Sequence record: OZ035743.1 | Direction: 5' to 3' (one strand) | Origin: Phapecoctavirus DIJ07P1 | DNA length: 64,000 nucleotides | Shown here: positions 24,600-54,495 of the stretch, in pieces | How the letters are laid out: every line of letters starts with the position of its first letter | Position numbering within the stretch: position 1 is the first letter of the stretch | The notes under the pieces: model-generated | What the model was told of the DNA's origin: nothing | Seen by the model: the letters and a program-made list of their open reading frames with translations, nothing else | The model's database searches: none | Program-made: the position numbers and the translations under genes

Positions 24600-24616
24600 T
24601 CTTTTCTCCTCTCTCT

Positions 24617-24677
24617 GCGGGGGAACTATTCCCCCGCTTCATGTGATATATCTTACTCTTTTTAAGAACTATGTCAA
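24617..24677 (-). promoter_or_regulatory. Promoter-leader cassette driving terC (TTGACA-16-TAAGAT plus 5' leader hairpin)
   Basis: Minus strand reads TTGACA-tagttcttaaaaagag-TAAGAT-atatcacatgaa-GCGGGGGAATAGTTCCCCCGC-agagagaggagaaaag-ATG; same architecture as the 46.5-52.7 kb array. Confidence 0.7.
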
Positions 24678-45380: not shown

Positions 45381-45540
45381 GTTATTTTGTCCTATACAAA
45401 CCCTTGTCTTTTTCAGTTTGCATCACTAGGATTCGATCTGAGTGGGTTCCTGAAGGTTTACCAATAAGATTAAAGGTTATATCAAATTCCCACTATCTTT
45501 TATCTCAAAAATCCCTCAAATTATTTAAACTTTTTAAGAA

Positions 45541-45717
45541 TTTACAAAAATGAAAGTACAAAAGCAAAATTTAAAGTTTAGGAAAATTATCTTAAAATGT
45601 TAGATACAAAACAAAACTCAAAAGTCAAGGAAAATTTTAAAAATTTTGCGCGCCCACAGTATTTAAAGTTTTTTTGCTTTTACAAAAATGAAAGTACAAA
45701 AGCAAAATTTAAAGTTT
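45541..45717. repeat. 40-bp direct repeat pair in AT-rich intergenic region
   Basis: tttacaaaaatgaaagtacaaaagcaaaatttaaagttta at 45541..45580 and 45678..45717. Confidence 0.8.
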
Positions 45718-45740
45718 ACAAAAATTTTTATGCAGGTGAA

Positions 45741-45846
45741 AATGAGAAGAGTTCTCATATGGAAATGCAAATGATAATGATTCGCATTTAAGTTTATAAA
45801 TGAGATTGATTCTTATTTAATAAGGTAAATGACAATCATTCTCATT
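45741..45846. promoter_or_regulatory. Four tandem ~19-bp palindromes resembling the Fur box
   Basis: aatgagaagagttctcat; aatgataatgattcgcatt; aatgagattgattcttatt; aatgacaatcattctcatt at ~28-bp spacing; last copy matches GATAATGATAATCATTATC at 14/16 aligned positions. Confidence 0.45.
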
Positions 45847-46106
45847 TAGAGAATGACGCGCAGGGGCGGTGTTTGTCTCGCGCTCCCGTGTCCCCTCGCC
45901 ATGTAATAAGAATAACAGATCCAGCCAGGAAAGCAAGCGATTATTTTATCTTTACATTTCTTTACAAATATATAGCACCCAGCCTACCGGCGATCAACCT
46001 TCCAACCAGTGCCCCCTGGTATGTTAGCCCCGCCTTTACGCCGTGGGGTGGCGCTTCCTCTTCTGTATGTAAAACAGTATAAGCCCGATCCCTGGGCTTG
46101 TCAAGA

Positions 46107-46373
46107 TTATTTTTTGTTTTCTTGCCAGGATAGGACACCTAACCAAAAATACATATCGCCCCGCGCCCCTGGTGGTATCTTGCTTTCCCCGCCGCCACTG
46201 CAAGCCCATAGATAACCATTTGCGAACGTATCAAAATGATCTATCTCTTCCACCTTATGATCGCCCAGGTTGAGAACGGTTTCAACCTTTAAGCCCGTTG
46301 CGCTTGCTACCTGGTGCACCGTGCCGCCTTGCCAGCCCAATGAGTGCATAAGGTGTAATGTAGTATTTGTCAT
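46107..46373 (-). CDS. Hypothetical protein in GC-rich island
   Basis: 88-aa ORF; competing ORFs on both strands; weak RBS. Confidence 0.35.
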   Translation of the reverse strand: MTNTTLHLMHSLGWQGGTVHQVASATGLKVETVLNLGDHKVEEIDHFDTFANGYLWACSGGGESKIPPGARGDMYFWLGVLSWQENKK

Positions 46374-46482
46374 GATATCGCCCTTTCTTTGTTGTGCGCC
46401 CTGGTTGGCGCGGTAGAAAGATAATAGCCCTTTTCTTTATATATAGCAAGCAAAAAGAAAATAAAAAAGATTGAAAAATGGT

Positions 46483-46540
46483 TGACGTTAACCAGGCGGC
46501 GGCGTAGTATTCATCTTGTAGGGCGGCAATGGTGCCGCTC
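46483..46540 (+). promoter_or_regulatory. Promoter-leader cassette 1
   Basis: TTGACG-spacer-TAGTAT then tagGGCGGCAATGGTGCCGCtc leader hairpin. Confidence 0.6.
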
Positions 46541-46559
46541 ACTATTTGGAGTTAAGATC

Positions 46560-46757
46560 ATGGCAACATTGCACATTGTGGCGAAAGCTGGACAAATCAA
46601 CGTAGTGGTAAACGGTTTTACTGAGTTCAGTCACCCCCAGGATGATCATGAAACGGTTTTATCTTTCATTGATTCCCTGTTAGAAATGGGAGTCATTACA
46701 GAAGACCAGCACGCTACAAAATGCAAGCGCGTTAATCAAATTGCAGGAATAGAATAA
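46560..46757 (+). CDS. Hypothetical small protein
   Basis: Start set at MATLHIVAK after GGAG RBS. Confidence 0.55.
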   Translation: MATLHIVAKAGQINVVVNGFTEFSHPQDDHETVLSFIDSLLEMGVITEDQHATKCKRVNQIAGIE

Positions 46758-46763
46758 AAAGTA

Positions 46764-46823
46764 TTGACAACAAACAACAACCTGATAAGATGTATCACAT
46801 AGGGCGGCGGAATGGTCCACCGC
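46764..46823 (+). promoter_or_regulatory. Promoter-leader cassette 2
   Basis: TTGACA-16-TAAGAT-gtatcacat-aGGGCGGCGGAATGGTCCACCGC; then cacaacagaagagagattatcatc-ATG. Confidence 0.7.
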
Positions 46824-46848
46824 TCACAACAGAAGAGAGATTATCATC

Positions 46849-47121
46849 ATGGCATCATATAGCGCAACAATGATCGTAGCTGGCACCACTGGTAAACCTA
46901 TGCGCGGTGGCGGATCTTTCGCTAATATCAATATTGACGGGCGTTTATCCCTGGACGCAGCGATCACCGTGGCGCGGGAAACATTTAAGAAAGAATGTAA
47001 ATTCAATAAACAAGATTATCTCGGTTTTGCTATTGAAAAAACCGCGCGCTTTGTTGATTATAAAAGCCCGAAAATGGTTGACACTACATTAAAAGCGCAA
47101 GATGTAGCGTTTTTGCTTTAA
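46849..47121 (+). CDS. Hypothetical small protein
   Basis: 90-aa ORF after cassette 2. Confidence 0.6.
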   Translation: MASYSATMIVAGTTGKPMRGGGSFANINIDGRLSLDAAITVARETFKKECKFNKQDYLGFAIEKTARFVDYKSPKMVDTTLKAQDVAFLL

Positions 47122-47124
47122 GGC

Positions 47125-47180
47125 TTGACATTAACGAATAATTTGTTAATATGTTACATAAAGCGGGAATAGTTCCCGCT
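47125..47180 (+). promoter_or_regulatory. Promoter-leader cassette 3
   Basis: TTGACA-16-TAATAT then GCGGGAATAGTTCCCGC hairpin. Confidence 0.65.
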
Positions 47181-47197
47181 ATTTGTAAGGTGGTAGA

Positions 47198-47455
47198 ATG
47201 TTTTACATCAAATTAAAAGGTCACGTGATCGCGTTCAAAGATAACGCTTTTTACAGATTAGCAAAATATGCGTTAATACATCCCCACTATGTTTATATAA
47301 GGGGGCGTGATGAAATAAATATCTTTGATCAAACAACATGCGAGAACATCGAGATCCGCAAGGTTGGCGTACGTGATTATCGTACATCTTTCTACCCTTG
47401 CAAGGATTCAGCAAGTCTTTTTAAAGTATGCCAATTGTTGAAAAAAGGTGGTTAA
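47198..47455 (+). CDS. Hypothetical small protein
   Basis: 85-aa ORF, RBS AAGGTGG. Confidence 0.6.
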   Translation: MFYIKLKGHVIAFKDNAFYRLAKYALIHPHYVYIRGRDEINIFDQTTCENIEIRKVGVRDYRTSFYPCKDSASLFKVCQLLKKGG

Positions 47456-48014
47456 TATGGGCCGCGAATATGTGATCCAGTCTTGGGTAAAACATGAAGC
47501 AGATGATCCGCGCATCATTCCCGATCATCTTATCGATGAATCCACGGGATATAGTGGTGAGCAAATAGGTAACAGATTAGCACGTAGTAACGGCAACGTA
47601 AAAGCGCGTTATGTGCGCCCTGGTTGGCTGGCAAATGGTAACGCTGATTTATCCAGTGCGGAAGATGCGAGCGACGGCGCGAAAGATAATCCTTTGTACA
47701 AAGTTGATCCAGCTTTTCGTGTCCTGGATGAATACCCCAGCAAGATAGCGGCGCTCGATCAGGCCCTGGAAAGTAAGCGCATCACCTGGACCGCTTACAA
47801 CATGGCAAAAAACGTACTTGATGGTAAATTGATTCAAGCTGAAAGAAAATTAGCCAAAATTGCAGCCATAGCCCAGGAGGAAGACGAGGAGACAACGGAA
47901 GAGGAAGAGTACGAAGAGATCCCGCCGTTGTTGTGTGTTGATGCTTTTCCTGATTATCAGCCGACAGAGGAAGAAAAAAGGATCGCACTAGAAAACTTTG
48001 AAAATAGTCTTTGA
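47448..48014 (+). CDS. Hypothetical acidic protein
   Basis: 188-aa ORF co-transcribed with previous; start 47448 or 47456. Confidence 0.6.
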   Translation: MVNMGREYVIQSWVKHEADDPRIIPDHLIDESTGYSGEQIGNRLARSNGNVKARYVRPGWLANGNADLSSAEDASDGAKDNPLYKVDPAFRVLDEYPSKIAALDQALESKRITWTAYNMAKNVLDGKLIQAERKLAKIAAIAQEEDEETTEEEEYEEIPPLLCVDAFPDYQPTEEEKRIALENFENSL

Positions 48015-48068
48015 CATATCGCCGCCACTGGCATAATATTTACCACGTAGGGCGGCAATGGTGCCGCT
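48012..48068 (+). promoter_or_regulatory. Promoter-leader cassette 4
   Basis: TTGACA-16-CATAAT then GCGGCAATGGTGCCGC hairpin. Confidence 0.65.
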
Positions 48069-48096
48069 CATAGTGAAATTATGCAAGAGGCTTACA

Positions 48097-48192
48097 ATGA
48101 TTAATAAAGAAAATAGCTTGACGGTTGGAACGATTAACGCTATCATTCTAGCCGTTCCATTTTGGGTTGTAGTAGCGGCTATTATTTTCTAA
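48097..48192 (+). CDS. 31-aa hydrophobic peptide
   Basis: MINKENSLTVGTINAIILAVPFWVVVAAIIF read manually; RBS AAGAGG; only ORF after cassette 4. Confidence 0.4.
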   Translation: MINKENSLTVGTINAIILAVPFWVVVAAIIF

Positions 48193-48200
48193 AAATATTC

Positions 48201-48261
48201 TTGACAACGTTTTTTAATCTGATAAGATGTATCACATAGGGCGGCGGAATACTTCCCCGCC
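48201..48261 (+). promoter_or_regulatory. Promoter-leader cassette 5
   Basis: TTGACA-16-TAAGAT-gtatcacat-aGGGCGGCGGAATACTTCCCCGCC. Confidence 0.7.
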
Positions 48262-48284
48262 AAAACAAAAAAAAGGGTAACACA

Positions 48285-48647
48285 ATGAGCAAGCAAATCA
48301 ATACTATCATGTTTAATCTGGTATCTTTCCGCGATGATATGAAAAATTTACCACGTGAAACGGTTGATATTCATGTTTCAGCTTATCGCGCCCTTATTGA
48401 CATGTTACCGCTAAAACGTGATCAACATGCCGCTAATATGATGCTTAATGCTATGCTTAAAAAGATGATTCAAACGGATCTTACTCTGGCGTATGAGTAT
48501 CAAGGGCGCTTATATGCGACTTACAACAAAGCGGTACCTGGTCTGGGAAGTACCGAAGAGTTGCACGGCTTAAACCTGGATCAAAACACTTGGGATAGTA
48601 TGCGCCGCGTTATGGTATGGGCCGAAAGCGGTAAAATTTACGAATAA
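48285..48647 (+). CDS. Hypothetical protein
   Basis: 120-aa ORF. Confidence 0.6.
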   Translation: MSKQINTIMFNLVSFRDDMKNLPRETVDIHVSAYRALIDMLPLKRDQHAANMMLNAMLKKMIQTDLTLAYEYQGRLYATYNKAVPGLGSTEELHGLNLDQNTWDSMRRVMVWAESGKIYE

Positions 48648-48654
48648 AAACGGT

Positions 48655-48710
48655 TGACACTGTTTAAACTTCTGGTATAGTTTATCACGTAGGGCGGCAA
48701 TGGTGCCGCC
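48655..48710 (+). promoter_or_regulatory. Promoter-leader cassette 6
   Basis: TTGACA-16-TATAGT-ttatcacgt-aGGGCGGCAATGGTGCCGCC. Confidence 0.7.
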
Positions 48711-48730
48711 AACAATAAAAGGTTAACATC

Positions 48731-48910
48731 ATGGCTATCATTGCAAAAACTGAGATTATAGGTTTAGATTCGATCCTCCTGGCTTATGAGGAAACTTTAA
48801 AAATGTATGTAGTGACCTATGGTGATTATGTGCGTGAATACGAATACATTGATCTTGCTTTCGAATGTTACATTCGCCAGGTCAATAAAGCCTATAATGA
48901 TTATCGTTAA
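48731..48910 (+). CDS. Hypothetical small protein (59 aa, below ORF-track cutoff)
   Basis: MAIIAKTEIIGLDSILLAYEETLKMYVVTYGDYVREYEYIDLAFECYIRQVNKAYNDYR read manually. Confidence 0.5.
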   Translation: MAIIAKTEIIGLDSILLAYEETLKMYVVTYGDYVREYEYIDLAFECYIRQVNKAYNDYR

Positions 48911-48929
48911 AAGTTTTAGTCTTATACTA

Positions 48930-48981
48930 TTGACAATGAGTGATAGTATAAGCATAATAACTTTTATCGGGAATACTTCCC
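48930..48981 (+). promoter_or_regulatory. Promoter-leader cassette 7 (degenerate hairpin)
   Basis: TTGACA-17-CATAAT then CGGGAATACTTCCC. Confidence 0.55.
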
Positions 48982-49007
48982 ACTAACCAAAAAGAGAGAG
49001 TGACACC

Positions 49008-49373
49008 ATGGCTATTAATATCAATGTTTCCGCTTATGCTACCCTGGCTAACACGGCTAAAATTGAATTATCCAGCATTGAGGCGGTGCATATTAGCGCC
49101 CGTCGCTGGTTTCAACAGTCCTACGGTAACACATATTTTTCTTTAATGGTTGACGTTGAGATCGGCGGTAAACTGATCGAGGTGGTTAACGTTCCGTTTC
49201 AATATGGCTATGGTGATCATTTTGATACCGTCGCCCTGGAAGAATTTAGCAAGGTTATCAACCTTGAGGGCAAGGAATTTTCACGCGGCGCGTATCTTTC
49301 CCGTTTTTGCCGTGACAATGGGATCACTGTATACAGTCATGCAAGCGATGTAAAACGTAAAAAAGATTTATAA
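49008..49373 (+). CDS. Hypothetical protein
   Basis: 121-aa ORF. Confidence 0.6.
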   Translation: MAININVSAYATLANTAKIELSSIEAVHISARRWFQQSYGNTYFSLMVDVEIGGKLIEVVNVPFQYGYGDHFDTVALEEFSKVINLEGKEFSRGAYLSRFCRDNGITVYSHASDVKRKKDL

Positions 49374-49379
49374 AAAGCA

Positions 49380-49438
49380 TTGACAGCACGAATAAAAAGA
49401 GTAAACTGTATTACATAGAGAGCGGGAATAGTTCCCGC
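49380..49438 (+). promoter_or_regulatory. Promoter-leader cassette 8
   Basis: TTGACA-16-TAAACT-gtattacatagaga-GCGGGAATAGTTCCCGC. Confidence 0.65.
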
Positions 49439-49462
49439 CTCATTCAAAGAGAGATTATCATC

Positions 49463-49702
49463 ATGGCTATTACTAAAACTTACAACGGTCACAAAAACAA
49501 AACTCACTGGAATGTAAGCCTTTGGATTAATAACGACGAATCATTATATCGGTTGGCGAAAGAATTTATCGCCGCTAATACTAATCGTAATGATGCTGCC
49601 CGTGATATGATGTTATTCCTGGAACAAACTGGACAAGATAAAACTCCAGACGGTTTCAAGTATAGCACTACAGCGATCCGCGCCGCGATGGTTGGAATGT
49701 AA
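49463..49702 (+). CDS. Hypothetical small protein
   Basis: 79-aa ORF. Confidence 0.6.
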   Translation: MAITKTYNGHKNKTHWNVSLWINNDESLYRLAKEFIAANTNRNDAARDMMLFLEQTGQDKTPDGFKYSTTAIRAAMVGM

Positions 49703-49711
49703 TAAAAACAG

Positions 49712-49771
49712 TTGACAACGTTTAAAATTAGTGTAAGATGTATCACATAGGGCGGGAAGTGGTTTCCCGCC
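49712..49771 (+). promoter_or_regulatory. Promoter-leader cassette 9
   Basis: TTGACA-16-TAAGAT-gtatcacat-aGGGCGGGAAGTGGTTTCCCGCC (perfect 8-bp stem). Confidence 0.7.
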
Positions 49772-49793
49772 AACAACAGAGAGATTAAAGATT

Positions 49794-50021
49794 ATGGCTA
49801 TCAATATTGTTCGCGTATCCGGCACCGTTGGCACTTCCCAGGTTATTGCAGTTGTAACAAACAAAAAGATTAATGATGTATGTGAGATCTTGAATAAGTG
49901 GGCTATTGCTAATTTTGGGGAATATGCAAGCGTCGAGTACATCGAATCCTACCAGGTGCCAACCATCAGCCTGACCGATCTCAACGTTGATCGCCTGTTA
50001 TGCCTGGATGAATTAATCTGA
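49794..50021 (+). CDS. Hypothetical small protein
   Basis: 75-aa ORF. Confidence 0.6.
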   Translation: MAINIVRVSGTVGTSQVIAVVTNKKINDVCEILNKWAIANFGEYASVEYIESYQVPTISLTDLNVDRLLCLDELI

Positions 50022-50032
50022 AAAAGATTGTT

Positions 50033-50086
50033 GACACGGGAAAGAAAAAGAGTAAACTGTTACAGGTAGGGCGGGAATAGTGCCGC
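50033..50086 (+). promoter_or_regulatory. Promoter-leader cassette 10 (hybrid hairpin)
   Basis: TTGACA...TAAACT-gttacaggt-aGGGCGGGAATAGTGCCGC; 5' arm of one variant with 3' arm of another. Confidence 0.6.
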
Positions 50087-50111
50087 TCACAACAGAAGAG
50101 AGATTATCACG

Positions 50112-50324
50112 ATGGCTAATATCCGCACACTGTTAAAAAATGCAAGTCAAGTTTTATTTTCTGATCACGATCATTTTAATAAAGATATTACAGGCGTGAA
50201 GAATATCAAAGATGTAAAAAGTGTTATGGGTATATATTGCAATGTTAAACGTGTTGGAACGTTCGGTGATAAAGTATTGTACCAATCAGGTGATTACAAT
50301 TTTACTTTGACGATTATTTCATAA
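50112..50324 (+). CDS. Hypothetical small protein
   Basis: 70-aa ORF. Confidence 0.6.
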   Translation: MANIRTLLKNASQVLFSDHDHFNKDITGVKNIKDVKSVMGIYCNVKRVGTFGDKVLYQSGDYNFTLTIIS

Positions 50325-50329
50325 AACGC

Positions 50330-50391
50330 TTGCAATACTGCAAAAATAAAGTAAACTGTATTACATCAAGGCGGCGGAATGGTCCACCGCC
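50330..50391 (+). promoter_or_regulatory. Promoter-leader cassette 11
   Basis: TTGCAA...TAAACT-gtattacatca-aGGCGGCGGAATGGTCCACCGCC. Confidence 0.6.
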
Positions 50392-50415
50392 TAACAAAGA
50401 GAAGAGGAAAATATT

Positions 50416-50583
50416 ATGATCACTTTCGCTACCCGTGAAGCCGCTCGCAACGTTGCACGTAAAGTTAACGCCGCCAACCTGGGCGCTACGCTTAAAGCCC
50501 CTGTAAAAGATGAATCAGGAAAATGGATCTTCCCTGGTCTACGTCATGCTGACAAGTTAGGTACTTTAAGCCTTAAAAAATAA
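50416..50583 (+). CDS. Hypothetical small basic protein (55 aa, below ORF-track cutoff)
   Basis: MITFATREAARNVARKVNAANLGATLKAPVKDESGKWIFPGLRHADKLGTLSLKK read manually; shares MITFA start with 50836..51057. Confidence 0.5.
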   Translation: MITFATREAARNVARKVNAANLGATLKAPVKDESGKWIFPGLRHADKLGTLSLKK

Positions 50584-50585
50584 TC

Positions 50586-50625
50586 GTTGACTTTTCGTTA
50601 TAGCGCCTTATAATGGGCGCTATAG
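50586..50625 (+). promoter_or_regulatory. Promoter with -10 embedded in a palindrome
   Basis: TTGACT-17-TATAAT with atagcgcc / ggcgctat inverted repeat flanking the -10. Confidence 0.55.
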
Positions 50626-50660
50626 AGAAGAGAAACCAGTCACAACAGAGAGAAAATATC

Positions 50661-50822
50661 ATGACCAATAAAGAAAAAGCCATCATTAAAGCACATTATC
50701 CACATCTAACATTACGTTTTAAAGCCGATGGATCTGTTATGGCCTCCAGTGGGCGCGGGTATGCTTACGGTTTACTTTACACCGCACAACAAGCGCAAGA
50801 TCATTTAAACGCAGTAAAATAA
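50661..50822 (+). CDS. Hypothetical small protein
   Basis: Start set at MTNKEK after GAGAGAAAA RBS (ORF track begins 50613). Confidence 0.5.
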   Translation: MTNKEKAIIKAHYPHLTLRFKADGSVMASSGRGYAYGLLYTAQQAQDHLNAVK

Positions 50823-50835
50823 CAAGGAAACCATT

Positions 50836-51057
50836 ATGATCACTTTCGCTATTGTCGCCGTTGTTGCTGGTCAAGTTTACGTAAATGAGACATTTACTAC
50901 AGAAGACAAGGCAGCAGGAGATATAACCGCCGTTTACAATGAGTGCAAGGCAGTAGAAAGGATGTTAGCGCCTTGTATGCTAATGAGTGAACGCCAGGAC
51001 GGAATAACAGTATTTACTAACATTGGAACAGGGTACCAAATGGTAGTAACAAAATAA
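50836..51057 (+). CDS. Hypothetical small protein with hydrophobic N-terminus
   Basis: 73-aa ORF, RBS AAGGAAA. Confidence 0.55.
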   Translation: MITFAIVAVVAGQVYVNETFTTEDKAAGDITAVYNECKAVERMLAPCMLMSERQDGITVFTNIGTGYQMVVTK

Positions 51058-51060
51058 AGC

Positions 51061-51117
51061 TTGACACCGATTTAATTTTTAGTAAACTGTTACAGGTAGG
51101 GCGGGAATAGTTCCCGC
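51061..51117 (+). promoter_or_regulatory. Promoter-leader cassette 12
   Basis: TTGACA...TAAACT-gttacaggt-aGGGCGGGAATAGTTCCCGC. Confidence 0.7.
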
Positions 51118-51136
51118 TCAAAAAGAGAGAAAGACC

Positions 51137-51490
51137 ATGAAAGCACAAAATGCAATTAAAGAGTACATCCTTGCCGCTATCGATTTTAATGATTACGGTA
51201 TTACAACCGAAAAAGAGAAGATCGCGGAATTGATGCGCCGTTTTAATTCCGAGTACTGGTACCCTGATAACCAATCACGTTTTAATTATAGTATTGTTAA
51301 AGCACTTGCATCATGGTTACAAGGTTTGCCATCAGATATCAATATCGCTTTCGAATATTGGGAAATTGATCGCTTGTTAACATCCTGGGGATACATTAAA
51401 GAGAATAGCAGCGATGATAAAATCCAACGAGAAAGGGAAAATTATTGGCTTTATATTGCAGGCGTGATCCTTGCTTGCTCTTATGAATGA
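51137..51490 (+). CDS. Hypothetical protein
   Basis: 117-aa ORF. Confidence 0.6.
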   Translation: MKAQNAIKEYILAAIDFNDYGITTEKEKIAELMRRFNSEYWYPDNQSRFNYSIVKALASWLQGLPSDINIAFEYWEIDRLLTSWGYIKENSSDDKIQRERENYWLYIAGVILACSYE

Positions 51491-51496
51491 TAAACC

Positions 51497-51549
51497 TTGA
51501 CAATTTTACAAAACAGTTTAAATTAACAATATAGCGGCAATGGTGCCGC
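51497..51549 (+). promoter_or_regulatory. Promoter-leader cassette 13
   Basis: TTGACA-16-TAAATT...ataGCGGCAATGGTGCCGC. Confidence 0.6.
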
Positions 51550-51568
51550 TCATATGAAGAGGAAACAA

Positions 51569-51715
51569 AATGAATACATCTAATCGCGCAGAAAAAATTC
51601 AATCTTCCAAGATCCGCAAGGCCTGGAACGAGGAAGTGATCCGCAAAGGCGACAAGCGTAATAAAACAAAGCGCGGGAAGAGTGACAAATATAATTGGAT
51701 GGATTTAGAGGATTA
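51569..51715 (+). CDS. 48-aa Lys/Arg-rich basic protein (below ORF-track cutoff)
   Basis: MNTSNRAEKIQSSKIRKAWNEEVIRKGDKRNKTKRGKSDKYNWMDLED, codons checked manually; RBS GAGGAAA. Confidence 0.5.
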
Positions 51716-51722
51716 ACATAAC

Positions 51723-51749
51723 AAGGGCGCATCAAGCGCCCTTTCTTTT
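51723..51749 (+). terminator. Rho-independent terminator (copy 1 of a repeated terminator)
   Basis: agggcgcatcaagcgccct followed by ttcttttt. Confidence 0.75.
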
Positions 51750-51771
51750 TACATGTAGAGGATAAACAAAA

Positions 51772-51957
51772 ATGACTTTAAACGAGCTTAAAACAGCCTA
51801 CAACGCAACATTAAAAATAGCCGTGCGTTACCGTGATGCGTATGGTTTTATCGCGCAGGGCGTGATCCTGGGCTTTTCTGACGATGGTTTGATCTATGTT
51901 GATGCACATCACAACAAGGTTAAACCTGAAAACGTCATTAGCATAAAATATCTTTAA
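51772..51957 (+). CDS. Hypothetical small protein
   Basis: 61-aa ORF, RBS AGAGGA. Confidence 0.55.
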   Translation: MTLNELKTAYNATLKIAVRYRDAYGFIAQGVILGFSDDGLIYVDAHHNKVKPENVISIKYL

Positions 51958-51963
51958 AAACGG

Positions 51964-52020
51964 TTGACAGCATAACCAAGTATGATAAGATGTATCACGT
52001 AGGGCGGGAATAGTTCCCGA
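51964..52020 (+). promoter_or_regulatory. Promoter-leader cassette 14
   Basis: TTGACA-16-TAAGAT-gtatcacgt-aGGGCGGGAATAGTTCCCG. Confidence 0.7.
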
Positions 52021-52042
52021 CCACATAAAAGAGAAAAACATT

Positions 52043-52255
52043 ATGACCACTATCACAACAAAACAAGAAAAAATTATTACAGACATTGCCGCAGTAGCCG
52101 CTATTGCTATTATTGGTACCTACTATGACACCGCGCGACCTTCCTCCTTACATGAGATCGCCGCCGTTGCATCAGTTGGCGTACTGTTTTACGTTGGTAA
52201 ACGCTATTTATCACCAATGATTAACAAGCTGACACCGTGGAAAAATAAAGGTTGA
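52043..52255 (+). CDS. Small membrane protein
   Basis: 70 aa, hydrophobic core. Confidence 0.55.
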   Translation: MTTITTKQEKIITDIAAVAAIAIIGTYYDTARPSSLHEIAAVASVGVLFYVGKRYLSPMINKLTPWKNKG

Positions 52256-52261
52256 TCCTGT

Positions 52262-52316
52262 TTTATATTGTGTTATAGTTATCGTGTAGGGCGGCAATGG
52301 TGCCGCGCCCCTTTGA
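52262..52316 (+). promoter_or_regulatory. Promoter-leader cassette 15
   Basis: TTGATC-16-TATAGT-tatcgtgt-aGGGCGGCAATGGTGCCGC. Confidence 0.6.
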
Positions 52317-52326
52317 GGATGCAATC

Positions 52327-52611
52327 ATGCGTAAAGCTAACACCGTGCTAATGTTTTCCCTGATTAATAATGCCGCTTACTTGTCCAACATGACGCAGGA
52401 GGGTAACACATTAACGGCAACATTCACCAATAAGCTTGACCGAGTGATCATAATCTCACTGAAAACAGTTAGTAAAGGCTTTTACTCGTTAGCTTATCAT
52501 TGTATCACTGACACCGACGAGACAAGCCAGGACTATAGCGCCCCTTTCCCTGAATCAATGGCACGGGAGATCATCGCCGCCGTTGTAAATGATGGTTTGT
52601 TTACTGCATAA
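52327..52611 (+). CDS. Hypothetical protein
   Basis: Start set at MRKANT after GAGGATG RBS. Confidence 0.55.
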   Translation: MRKANTVLMFSLINNAAYLSNMTQEGNTLTATFTNKLDRVIIISLKTVSKGFYSLAYHCITDTDETSQDYSAPFPESMAREIIAAVVNDGLFTA

Positions 52612-52627
52612 AATAATTCAGAAAAGG

Positions 52628-52686
52628 CTTGCAATAATTTTCAGACCGTGTATATTTAATTCATAGGGCGGCGGGAATAGTTCCCT
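52628..52686 (+). promoter_or_regulatory. Promoter-leader cassette 16 (degenerate)
   Basis: TTGCAA...TATATT...catagGGCGGCGGGAATAGTTCCC. Confidence 0.55.
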
Positions 52687-52708
52687 AAGCAAACGAGAGG
52701 ATTACACG

Positions 52709-52828
52709 ATGAGCAAGTATACAGTAGAATACACGGTAGAAAATCCGGCAGTATCCGAAGGTAAAAAGATGACATTTGCCATCAGTATAATCGCTTTCGT
52801 TATCACTATCTTATCAATCATCTTATAA
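52709..52828 (+). CDS. 39-aa hydrophobic peptide
   Basis: MSKYTVEYTVENPAVSEGKKMTFAISIIAFVITILSIIL read manually; RBS GAGAGGA. Confidence 0.4.
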   Translation: MSKYTVEYTVENPAVSEGKKMTFAISIIAFVITILSIIL

Positions 52829-52966
52829 GGTGCGTACTATGAAAACAACAGACATTATCAAAGAGATCGCCCTTGCCGCTGACGTTGAGATCGAGGAAGT
52901 GATCGCGCTCAACCTTACAGAAAACGATCTACTCAATCTATGAAGCGTTATAATTGACAACAAAAC

Positions 52967-52993
52967 AAGGGCGCACCAAGCGCCCTTTCTTTT
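52967..52993 (+). terminator. Rho-independent terminator (copy 2, near-identical to 51723..51749)
   Basis: agggcgcaccaagcgccct followed by ttcttttt. Confidence 0.75.
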
Positions 52994-52994
52994 T

Positions 52995-54495
52995 GCCCGA
53001 ACAATGTTGATAGCTTTCGCCTATGAAAAACCGACACAGAACAAAACTGAATAAATCGCGGTATCGAGCTAATCAACCAGCAAACGAATAACCATACCTC
53101 CCAGGGTTACAGGCTGTTAGAGAGCCATTTAGAGCGGTTAAAATCGATCAACAACCAACAACAAACCATCAAAAACACCCTTTTACCTCCTTTCTAGTGC
53201 AATGATAACCATTATCATCTACCCATGATTATCTATGCAATATAAGCGCATAATTATAATGTTGATAATAGTTCGCAACAACTAACCAACAAACAACATA
53301 AAACAATAAGCAAACTAATCATAATCAAAGGAATAATAGCAAGATGATTGATAACGACAAACAATCAAACCATGATGAATACTAAGCAAGATAACGATAA
53401 CACGACAAAACAACCAACTAACGAACAATAACAAACGAAACCATTAAAATAATAACTATTAGCAAAATAGTGCATGAATGAAATCATTACAAAACGAATC
53501 ATTCACAGAGTCATCATTAGCACGCTATGCCGGACACATAGCGAGCTAATAATAAGCCAACTACACCCCAACAATCATAACCATCGGTGACGGTTATTTC
53601 TTGTTACTGCGTAGCTTGCAATAATTGCAAGCGTAATGACGCTTACACTTATTGCGCTGGCTTATTATTAGCATTATATGTAATTACCAAGATCATAACA
53701 TTAGCGCAATAACAATAGTCATTGTGATAATTACAAGATGAGATCATTAGCAAGATGAATAATTGCACGTAGCAACATGAGCGAATAGCGACAGGTTGCA
53801 TAGTGTGCACATAGTGTATAAACATACAAGAAAATAAAGGCTAATCTTTTGGGGGCGAATACTATCGCGTAGCGATATGTTGAGCACCTTCTCTTAAACG
53901 TAAATAAAATCAGAAAATTCTTGATTTATTTTGGCTTTTATGTTAATAAACGTTTAAATAATAATCATTCTCATATAAATAATAGTCTGCTTGTCATGAG
54001 CGGCATTAGTTGACATTGTTCCGTCATATGATGAAGTTGCCAAGCCATTGATAAATAAGTGTTTGTGTGATTTATAATCAGGTGGCCCACCTTGTCGCTA
54101 TGTTGGCATGAGCCTTGCATAAGTCATTGAATACGAATGATAATTATTCTCATTCGCATGATATTTGGGAATTGTCGCTGCGTGGACCTGACGGCCCGAA
54201 AATTCGCGTTAAGCACTTCTTACGTATGCGCCATGATTTTTGCCATATGATATTGATTCTATTAGATATTCTTGCCATTATTGCCATGAAACAGGGTGTG
54301 TCGAAATAATTGCTCCCCGTAGATATTTTGGGTTACTTTTTATACAAGAGTGGGGTGTCAAAAATAATCGGTATATATGGGATAATTGATAGGAATCCCC
54401 TATGATAATTCGATTGTAATTCCCTAAGATTGATCGTATGATGTTGGTGATTGATGATTGCCATGAAAGATGGCTAACGATGAGAGGAGATTGTC
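52995..54495. other. A/C-rich, strand-asymmetric non-coding region (~1.5 kb)
   Basis: No convincing ORF; plus strand dominated by A and C with recurring CAAGATGA / GATAACGA / ATCATTAGC words. Confidence 0.6.
53957..54157. promoter_or_regulatory. Fur-box-like palindromes (second locus)
   Basis: aataataatcattctcat (53957..53974) and cgaatgataattattctcattcg (54135..54157); same motif family as 45741..45846. Confidence 0.45.

Follow-up and report, generated by a model that had tools for sequence, protein, structure and literature searches.

Reiterated promoter and leader-hairpin cassettes precede the small genes of a probable immediate-early block in a Phapecoctavirus

The 64,000-nucleotide stretch of Phapecoctavirus DIJ07P1 (subfamily Stephanstirmvirinae; record OZ035743.1) analyzed here, hereafter the window, contains a block of small open reading frames (ORFs), almost all of which have their own unit of promoter and leader hairpin. 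By direct reading and a mechanical scan we located 17 such cassettes between 46482 and 52708, all on the plus strand. An A-tract comes first, then TTGACA and TAnnnT with a spacer of 16-17 bp between them; a G/C-rich hairpin follows some 10 nt later, and roughly 21 unpaired nt that include the ribosome-binding site (RBS) lead from it to the ATG (Table 1). The initial annotation had described an array of about 17 near-identical promoter, hairpin and small-ORF units. The units are indeed there, but their copies are only ~60-85% identical, and a further copy on the minus strand (24600-24677), which precedes an integral-membrane-protein gene, had been missed.

A megablast search of positions 46400-52800 against a phage collection matched 204 records, with Escherichia phage vB_EcoM-Ro121lw (Ro121lw) the best match at 99.0% identity and 97% coverage, followed by other Phapecoctavirus genomes. 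Both the end and the start of the Ro121lw record fall within the window. Genes under the array are all annotated as hypothetical proteins in the matching records; the Schickermooser record labels one leader hairpin, the orthologue of that of cassette 3, as a terminator called by ARNOLD, and the ESCO13 record marks RBSs only. The array is preceded by small clustered plus-strand genes and by a single minus-strand gene (46107-46373). Nearly all of the 20 array proteins that we checked against PHROGs and Pfam belong to PHROG families of unknown function. One ORF encodes a small membrane protein of the PHROGs category 'moron, auxiliary metabolic gene and host takeover'. The sole Pfam match is a domain of unknown function, DUF7249, in one ORF, and neither resource revealed an RNA-binding or regulatory partner among these 20 proteins. 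A scan for tRNA and tmRNA genes found none in the window.

The promoters are close to the sigma-70 consensus, as first proposed. The -35 hexamer is exactly TTGACA in 12 of the 17 cassettes and carries one or two mismatches in the others, the spacer is 16 bp in 13 cassettes and 17 bp in four, and the -10 hexamers are TAAGAT, TAAACT, TATAGT, TAATAT, TATAAT or similar. Cassettes 2, 3, 5 and 15 have an extended -10 (TG one nucleotide upstream of the hexamer), and in 14 of the 17 the 12 nt ahead of the -35 include four or more consecutive A. Since between 0 and 19 nt separate the -35 from the stop codon of the preceding gene, which twice falls inside the hexamer, the intergenic gaps of 71-97 nt are wholly cassette. 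Promoter matches of at least 10/12 in the 6.2-kb array number 14 on the plus strand and one on the minus strand, compared with 1.4 +/- 1.2 expected from first-order Markov simulations. The best explanation is that the region is a hyperplastic immediate-early gene block of Phapecoctavirus with one expression cassette per small ORF, in which a UP-like A-tract and a near-consensus sigma-70 promoter would be read by unmodified host RNA polymerase.

Downstream of the promoter, the predicted fold of 14 of the 17 array leaders is a 5' hairpin with an energy between -11 and -16 kcal/mol; cassettes 7 and 17 have weak hairpins and cassette 12 lacks one. Individual z-scores run from -1.2 to -3.8, apart from values between -0.11 and -0.45 for cassettes 7, 16 and 17. 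In every folded leader the RBS region is unpaired. The hairpin begins 8-14 nt after the -10 in 16 of the 17 array cassettes, cassette 12 being the exception, and among the hairpin-bearing promoters of this genome and its relatives the first paired base is 10-11 nt after the -10 in 28 of 44 and 9-12 nt after it in 75%. A median of 21 nt separates the end of the hairpin from the ATG, with RBS and ATG 17-27 nt after the hairpin. We predicted the transcript start by rule, ~7 nt after the -10, which places the hairpin at about +4 to +25; a start 6-8 nt after the -10 would leave an unpaired 5' overhang of about 2-5 nt.

Hairpin and promoter are strictly coupled. In a general hairpin scan of the window, no member of the family stood alone, each of the 11 perfect hairpins following a promoter by the same distance, and promoter-like sites elsewhere in the window showed no hairpin peak at that distance (0/23, 0/7 and 2/26). 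A covariance-model search, suggested with the initial annotation as a check, recovered 15 copies in the window from a model built on 11, and no match within positions 1-100 kb of Ro121lw, which hold replication, nucleotide-metabolism, tRNA and structural genes. Members of the family thus occur only in the array block and as the single minus-strand copy. A search of Rfam over 44-56 kb, at E values up to 1, returned no family, and a resemblance to a T-arm or tRNA minihelix was rejected by eye, the loop being unlike the T-loop consensus.

The hairpins do not have the form of terminators. No cassette has a T-run after its hairpin, where the sequence is C/A-rich, and the only convincing plus-strand terminators are at 51723 and 52967; we rejected intrinsic (rho-independent) termination because the cassette hairpins lack a U-tract and none is listed in the plus-strand scan. 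Attenuation is a separate matter. In phage RB49 the stem-loop of a PeSL (promoter-early stem-loop), a cassette type of T4-like phages, lowered lacZ expression about as much as rrnB T1 (PMC2839356), and in the RB49 sequence this stem (GGGGATCACGTATCCCC, in the intergenic space of ORFs 210 and 211) runs into TATACTAC and likewise lacks a T-run. An attenuator of this type would damp read-through from upstream tandem promoters, its place after a promoter being incidental; 17 promoters in one direction with only two true terminators, and the ARNOLD call in a relative's record, would suit it. However, all 16 hairpins lack a T-rich tail and fail the plus-strand terminator scan, a hairpin after its own promoter would damp its own transcripts too, and the promoter-less gaps (47455/47457, 50822/50836 and 52828/52839) never contain one. 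The distance to the -10 is also fixed within ~2 nt across subfamilies, which attenuation does not need, and we consider an attenuator unlikely. Strict coupling, fixed spacing and the lack of terminator tails argue that the hairpin serves the transcript of its own promoter, not the stopping of upstream transcripts.

The same layout is conserved in two subfamilies: it is present in Justusliebigvirus VEcB, in Citrobacter phage Tr1 (unclassified Stephanstirmvirinae) and, in the other subfamily, in Vequintavirus B9-1. For 77 strong promoters from five loci, the median predicted folding energy of a 38-nt leader window was -9.3, compared with -3.4 upstream (Wilcoxon p = 3e-9) and -4.0 in coding sequence (p = 2e-6), and 57% of leader windows reached -8 kcal/mol or lower, as against 12% of upstream and 17% of coding flanks. 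The stems themselves differ. Those seen in relatives include GGCGGGAAA/TTTCCCGCC, GGGGCGAG/CTTGCCCC, GGGCA/TGCCC, GGGGA/TCCCC, GGCGCA/TGCGCC and CGGGGGAA/TTCCCCCG. For the gene behind cassette 5, orthologues identified by tblastn keep the hairpin position with the stem GGCGGCGGAA/TTCCCCGCC here, GGCGGGAAA/TTTCCCGCC in VEcB and GGGGCGAG/CTTGCCCC in B9-1. At cassette 11, VEcB has a T-A pair in place of the C.A mismatch and in Tr1 the entire stem is GGGGA/TCCCC, and the stems of cassettes 13 and 14 are likewise changed at a conserved position in orthologues. The minus-strand copy has one G and one C more than its Ro121lw counterpart, on opposite arms, so that Ro121lw has one G-C pair fewer.

We aligned 57 distinct copies, many of them paralogues, in an alignment fitted to the structure model; 90.7% of cells pair and five of nine pairs show two-sided changes. 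The covariation score was 0.192, compared with 0.072 for shuffled alignments (none of 500 reached the observed value) and at most 0.078 with slid partners. The initial annotation had taken three pairing-preserving stem versions as compensatory change that points to a selected structure. Its letters were correct, but two of the three are one version at different lengths, and the window alone contains two or three independent compensatory events; relatives, with their different stems, carry most of the weight, and with them the proposal stands. Because the same geometry precedes orthologous genes with different stems, selection on both structure and position is supported, and the hairpin would be more than a repeated sequence, namely a structure under selection at a set position immediately behind the predicted start.

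This evidence bears on the simplest alternative, in which no structure is selected and the hairpin is a passenger of a duplicated promoter cassette, kept by recent common ancestry. Most copies in the window do fall into two or three inheritable stem types, cassettes 7 and 17 are decaying (the cassette 7 hairpin has decayed further in VEcB) and cassette 10 was apparently broken by conversion. A passenger would hardly be kept across Phapecoctavirus, Justusliebigvirus, Tr1 and Vequintavirus with unrelated stems at the same distance from the -10, or show compensatory changes above controls, and we regard this explanation as very improbable.

A structure could also be selected in DNA, with transcription irrelevant, as an early-repressor operator or as a cruciform or recombination signal. 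The position from +4 to +25 is that of a classic operator, recombination among cassettes does occur, and the PeSL authors speculated that the G..C stem might be a target for a recombination protein (PMC2839356). But an operator would keep the sequence of its half-sites, whereas here both arms change together and orthologous stems are unrelated. Homologous recombination needs only the repeat and no hairpin, and junctions fall in the leader and RBS as often as in the stem. Among internal mismatches, G.U (G.T in DNA) on the coding strand outnumbers A.C by 14 to 4, most G.U being one inherited position, an excess that leans weakly toward constraint at the RNA level and away from DNA. Taken together, we think a DNA-level element quite unlikely.

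In RNA, the hairpin might instead be a recognition site: a protein of the phage or the host would bind it and so mark immediate-early transcripts, for instance for nut/boxB-like antitermination, for a timed shut-off or for cleavage like that of early mRNAs by T4 RegB. Its position relative to the 5' end is fixed, the element is limited to one temporal gene class, and the apex G-[GC]-AAU-[AG]-G-U is invariant in 17 copies within this genome. Against this, loops differ freely among cassettes and relatives (UAG, AUGG, UAC, UGG, UGU, AAC, GCAA, AUGA and CAA), and our searches found no boxA-like enrichment, no Rfam family and no candidate binding protein, which makes such a site rather improbable. 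A broader form of the idea, which we hold to be a long shot, is that phi92-like and rV5-like phages share, throughout their lineage, the hairpin at +4 as an 'identity tag' on the 5' end of immediate-early mRNAs, read by a dedicated factor of the phage or the host. If so, it would be a new layer of post-transcriptional control and not a generic stabilizer, and it may exempt phage early mRNAs from phage-induced, 5'-end-dependent decay of host mRNA or, alternatively, time the shut-off of early mRNAs.

The reading that we tentatively prefer, at best evenly balanced between right and wrong, is that the hairpin is a stabilizer and insulator of the transcript. The G/C-rich stem-loop would start at ~+4 and be followed by ~21 unpaired, C/A-rich nt carrying the RBS. 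Acting in RNA as a 5'-terminal stem-loop, it would leave only a few (~2-5) unpaired 5' nt, abut the ribosome-binding site and hinder 5'-end-dependent decay, in which RppH and the 5' sensor of RNase E take part. The uniform context of the RBS would allow many unrelated early ORFs all to be expressed strongly and immediately. We infer protection because E. coli mRNAs such as ompA are known to be protected in this way, by a hairpin near the 5' end that abuts the ribosome footprint.

Several points weigh against this role. Of the strong early promoters in VEcB, Tr1 and B9-1, roughly half have no hairpin, cassettes 7, 12 and 17 are weak or hairpin-less and the damaged stem of cassette 10 is tolerated, so individual genes can do without the hairpin. 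The position at +4 depends on a start predicted by the ~7-nt rule. Many of the 'covarying' cells stem from cassette duplication and not from independent events, in an alignment fitted to the model, and the apical sequence (GAAUAGUUC / GCAAUGGUGC) is more conserved in this genome than a purely structural role needs. B. subtilis RppH needs only 2-3 unpaired nt (PMC3997798), which makes the predicted overhang borderline for protection, and RNase E can step over orthogonal stem-loops while scanning (PMC9943677), so that protection must come from occlusion of the 5' end. Activation of RNase E by Srd was dropped as a motive for a protective hairpin, because the Srd-like gp11 of rV5 had no tblastn match in the window or Ro121lw.

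Comparison with relatives shows that the 70-95-nt repeats recombine, with apparent gene conversion and with insertion or replacement of ORFs at leader junctions. The 5' arm of cassette 10 and the block upstream of it come from cassette 13, with which they are identical over AGTAAACTGTTACAGGTAGGGCGGGAATAGT, and the 3' arm is the original one; in four Phapecoctavirus relatives and VEcB the hairpin is intact (GGGCGGCA-ATAG-TGCCGCTC). By its sequence, cassette 10 is a short gene-conversion tract from cassette 13 that would weaken the stem (-11.3 kcal/mol). Three alleles occur in the slot after cassette 12, joined to the neighboring sequence within the leader and immediately ahead of the following ATG: in ESCO13, cassette 12 directly drives the 'MITFAIV' ORF; here, a 53-codon ORF with its own leader of post-hairpin type is inserted after it; and Ro121lw, Schickermooser, Ro121c4YLVW and Mt1B1_P17 have a different 72-codon ORF and extra intergenic DNA. 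Cassette 1 has a hairpin here and a ~130-nt leader on the same promoter in Mt1B1_P17 and VEcB. Promoter block, stem type and post-hairpin leader are freely combined: TAAGAT-GTATCACAT occurs with four stem types and the C-type stem with two promoter blocks. These mosaics require exchange among copies. The coincidence of junctions with cassettes is partly automatic, because nearly every intergenic gap is cassette. Recombination among the repeats implies that, like PeSL regions, the block evolves through the shuffling of modules. Neither this exchange nor the PeSL counterpart had been noticed in the initial annotation.

Relative to Ro121lw, 4.4 kb (144475-148849 of its record), with at least seven further cassettes, has been lost here. 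We rejected a cassette-mediated origin for this deletion, since its junction (52926-52947, and 52830-52943) is a GATCT-centered microhomology inside ORFs; it created a fused 37-codon ORF. Two further observations concern DNA beside the cassettes. The ~130-nt leader (locus L004, 1075-1260, in Mt1B1_P17; locus L006, 5049-5180, in VEcB) includes a mini-ORF of 6 codons (ATGCAGGACGGGCAAAGGTGA), with a strong AGGAGGG site ahead of it. Schickermooser (locus L001, 6298-6386) has an 87-bp insertion between window positions 49702 and 49704, wedged between the stop codon and the -35 of cassette 9, with a 26-codon mini-ORF and its own AGGAG site.

The array differs slightly from its surroundings in composition, as had been proposed together with a possible horizontal origin. 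GC content is 0.409 in the array, a value reached by only 3 of 289 equally long windows, and 0.390 in the rest, and GC at third codon positions is 0.40 in array ORFs compared with 0.31-0.35 elsewhere. Relative synonymous codon usage correlates with that of E. coli at r = 0.50 (bootstrap 0.25-0.61), compared with 0.12-0.17 in other gene groups; these values are indicative only. The GC-richer composition and host-like codons therefore hold, weakly. Ro121lw carries 11 tRNA genes, and early translation before the phage's 11 tRNAs accumulate is a sufficient explanation that fits host-like codons at least as well as horizontal acquisition, so a horizontal origin is not required.

Table 1. Cassettes and terminators in the window. 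Positions of cassettes 1-17 start at the first base of the -35; energies are those of the predicted fold from the predicted transcript start to the ATG.
Feature	Position (strand)	Promoter	Hairpin	Energy (kcal/mol)	z	Remarks
Cassette 1	46482..46559 (+)	TTGACG-17-TAGTAT	46521-46540 (GGGCGGCA AUGG UGCCGCUC)	-14.6		RBS; ATG 46560
Cassette 2	46764..46848 (+)	TTGACA-16-TAAGAT, TG-extended	46802-46825 (GGGCGGCGGA AUGG UCCACCGCUC)	-15.3		C.A mismatch
Cassette 3	47125..47197 (+)	TTGACA-16-TAATAT	47162-47180 (AGCGGGAA UAG UUCCCGCU)	-12.4		
Cassette 4	48011..48096 (+)	TTGACA-17-TAATAT	48050-48069	-14.7		upstream stop codon inside -35
Cassette 5	48201..48284 (+)	TTGACA-16-TAAGAT	48240-48261 (GGCGGCGGAA UAC UUCCCCGCC)	-14.0		bulged C
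Cassette 6	48654..48730 (+)	TTGACA-16-TATAGT	48693-48710 (GGCGGCA AUGG UGCCGCC)	-14.4		
Cassette 7	48930..49007 (+)	TTGACA-17-CATAAT	48969-48981 (GGGAA UAC UUCCC)	-5.5	-0.45	degenerate hairpin
Cassette 8	49380..49462 (+)	TTGACA-16-TAAACT	49418-49441 (GAG.GCGGGAA UAG UUCCCGCCUC)	-15.4	-3.6	
Cassette 9	49712..49793 (+)	TTGACA-16-TAAGAT	49751-49771 (GGCGGGAA GUGGU UUCCCGCC)	-15.2	-3.8	
Cassette 10	50031..50111 (+)	TTGACA-16-TAAACT	50069-50088	-11.3		chimeric hairpin
Cassette 11	50330..50415 (+)	TTGCAA-16-TAAACT	50369-50392 (GGCGGCGGA AUGG UCCACCGCC)	-15.8	-3.7	C.A mismatch
Cassette 12	50587..50660 (+)	TTGACT-16-TATAAT	no leader hairpin	0		inverted repeat 50599-50624 (TATAGCGCC..GGCGCTATA) spanning -10
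Cassette 13	51061..51136 (+)	TTGACA-16-TAAACT	51099-51119 (GGGCGGGAA UAG UUCCCGCUC)	-14.9		
Cassette 14	51497..51569 (+)	TTGACA-16-TAAATT	51533-51550 (AGCGGCA AUGG UGCCGCU)	-11.4		
Cassette 15	51964..52042 (+)	TTGACA-16-TAAGAT	52002-52022 (GG.CGGGAA UAG UUCCCG.CC)	-11.2		top covariance-model match
Cassette 16	52252..52326 (+)	TTGATC-16-TATAGT	52289-52309	-14.1	-0.13	GC-rich leader; upstream stop codon inside -35
Cassette 17	52629..52708 (+)	TTGCAA-16-TATATT	52673-52685 (GGGAA UAG UUCCC)	-7.8	-0.11	truncated hairpin, outer 3' arm lost
Isolated cassette	24600..24677 (-)	TTGACA-16-TAAGAT	24617-24637 (GCGGGGGAA UAG UUCCCCCGC)	-19.4		
Intrinsic terminator in array	51723..51743 (+)		AAGGGCGC AUCAA GCGCCCUU + UCUUUUU			
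Intrinsic terminator closing array	52967..52987 (+)					near-identical to the terminator in the array

Some features of the array and its flanks stand apart from the cassettes. The two terminators (51715-51750 and 52959-52994; AACAnAACAAGGGCGCAyCAAGCGCCCTTTCTTTTT) both score on the minus strand too, and their 94% identity marks the terminator itself as a repeated module. Five array ORFs (starts 48731, 49008, 49463, 49794 and 50112) begin with ATGGCTA (MAI/MAN), and two unrelated ORFs share their RBS and first five codons (MITFA; 50405-50431 and 50825-50851), so that cassette homology or second-codon selection extends into coding sequence. In the leader of cassette 4, a 7-codon mini-ORF (ATGCAAGAGGCTTACAATGATTAA, 48081-48104) overlaps the start of a 31-codon membrane ORF (48097). 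Four copies of a Fur-box-like 29-mer (TAAATGACAATCATTCTCATTTA / CGAATGATAATTATTCTCATTCG) lie in AT-rich non-coding stretches on both flanks of the array, as a tandem pair at 45797-45854 and singly at 53955-53983 and 54134-54162. A 72-nt direct repeat of 88% identity (45517-45588 and 45655-45726) lies in a very AT-rich (GC 0.34) and apparently non-coding region with several TTTACA..CAAAAT promoter-like sites. Positions 53000-53880 (~0.9 kb) contain no convincing ORF and are rich in A/C tracts and short tandem repeats; adjoining the start and end of the Ro121lw record, they may be a genome terminus or origin region.

Coliphages of ~150 kb are common in phage-therapy and biocontrol collections, with early regions annotated as rows of hypothetical proteins and the cassettes unannotated in public records or, in one case, mislabeled as a terminator. 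Recognizing the module gives the start points of ~20 early transcription units per genome and offers a compact, naturally insulated cassette for strong expression in E. coli. With paralogous, orthologous, degenerate and one chimeric copy, the family is also a natural test system for the distance from the 5' end that such a hairpin requires. Finally, it extends beyond T4-like phages the PeSL idea of regulatory cassettes as linkers for modular gene shuffling.

Searches of the literature on rV5-, phi92- and phAPEC8-like phages, Phapecoctavirus, Vequintavirinae and Stephanstirmvirinae yielded generic promoter and terminator counts only and no such leader hairpin. Known systems of other kinds offer a comparison. 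In N4-type promoters, a DNA hairpin with a 5-7 bp stem and a 3-nt loop upstream of the start is used by the virion RNA polymerase. We rejected this model because the array hairpin lies downstream of a canonical sigma-70 promoter and no phage RNA polymerase was found, none of the 292 annotated features of Ro121lw being such a gene. The lambda nut (boxA/boxB) and rrn antiterminator leaders share with the array a short GC-stem hairpin in the promoter-proximal transcript, but a nut site occurs once per operon, whereas the array has 17 sites with no boxA, no conserved purine-rich pentaloop and no identified N-like protein. Beside the hairpin, boxA was no better than random: the mean best mismatch was 2.8 for lambda boxA (3.0 in random segments) and 6.2 for rrn boxA (5.6), and with variable loops and no Rfam match, antitermination of this kind was rejected. 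Lambdoid morons are, like the array units, autonomous expression units with accessory genes between other genes, but morons are single and terminator-ended, whereas the array units are tandemly reiterated, carry a leader hairpin and have two terminators for the whole array.

A close counterpart of the hairpin is the 5'-terminal stabilizer stem-loop in the ompA 5' untranslated region of E. coli. Base pairing at the 5' end reportedly protects E. coli mRNAs, as Emory, Bouvet and Belasco in 1992 and Arnold et al. in 1998 (both cited in PMC3997798) are said to have found. Common to ompA-type stabilizers and, by prediction, the array is a sequence-independent hairpin within a few nt of the 5' end, followed by an unstructured and efficiently used RBS, and in the array structure does prevail over sequence, with different stems behind orthologous promoters and covariation above controls. 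The two differ in that ompA-type stabilizers belong to single cellular genes and have measured half-lives, whereas the array has at least 17 copies per genome and is interpreted from its sequence, and in that the overhang predicted for the array leaders, about 2-5 nt, only just falls within reach of protection, for which about 0-4 unpaired nt are expected.

As a cassette, the array most resembles the PeSLs of the T4-like phages RB49/phi1, T4/PST and KVP40/nt-1 (Arbiol et al. 2010, PMC2839356; Comeau et al. 2014, PMC4122927). In both, a stop codon in an A/T-rich tract is followed by a strong sigma-70-like early promoter, a G..C stem-loop, a Shine-Dalgarno sequence and ATG; the unit is reiterated before small ORFans in a hyperplastic early region; and copies recombine, with ORF insertions, deletions and replacements whose junctions fall somewhere from the -10 to the ATG. 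Experiments have demonstrated mini-circles and terminator activity for PeSLs (PMC2839356, PMC4122927), whereas the array cassettes are known from their sequence. Lineage differs, in that PeSLs belong to T4-like myoviruses (Straboviridae) and the array to Stephanstirmvirinae and Vequintavirinae, and so does the defining position of the stem. RB49 stems (GGGGATC..GATCCCC, which we read directly from its sequence) start ~24 nt before the end of the -10, in the spacer (6/13), or span the -10, and in PST and nt-1 the stems precede the promoter and are interpreted as terminators. The array stem starts 10-11 nt after the -10, in the promoter's own transcript; only cassette 12, with a stem across the -10 like many RB49 PeSLs, matches the PeSL position. 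The array would thus be PeSL-like in the evolution of its DNA and differ in stem position, in lineage and probably in the function of the stem. We are confident that the cassettes are sigma-70 immediate-early expression units of a PeSL-like kind, and they are a new positional variant of the PeSL-type promoter-stem-loop cassette.

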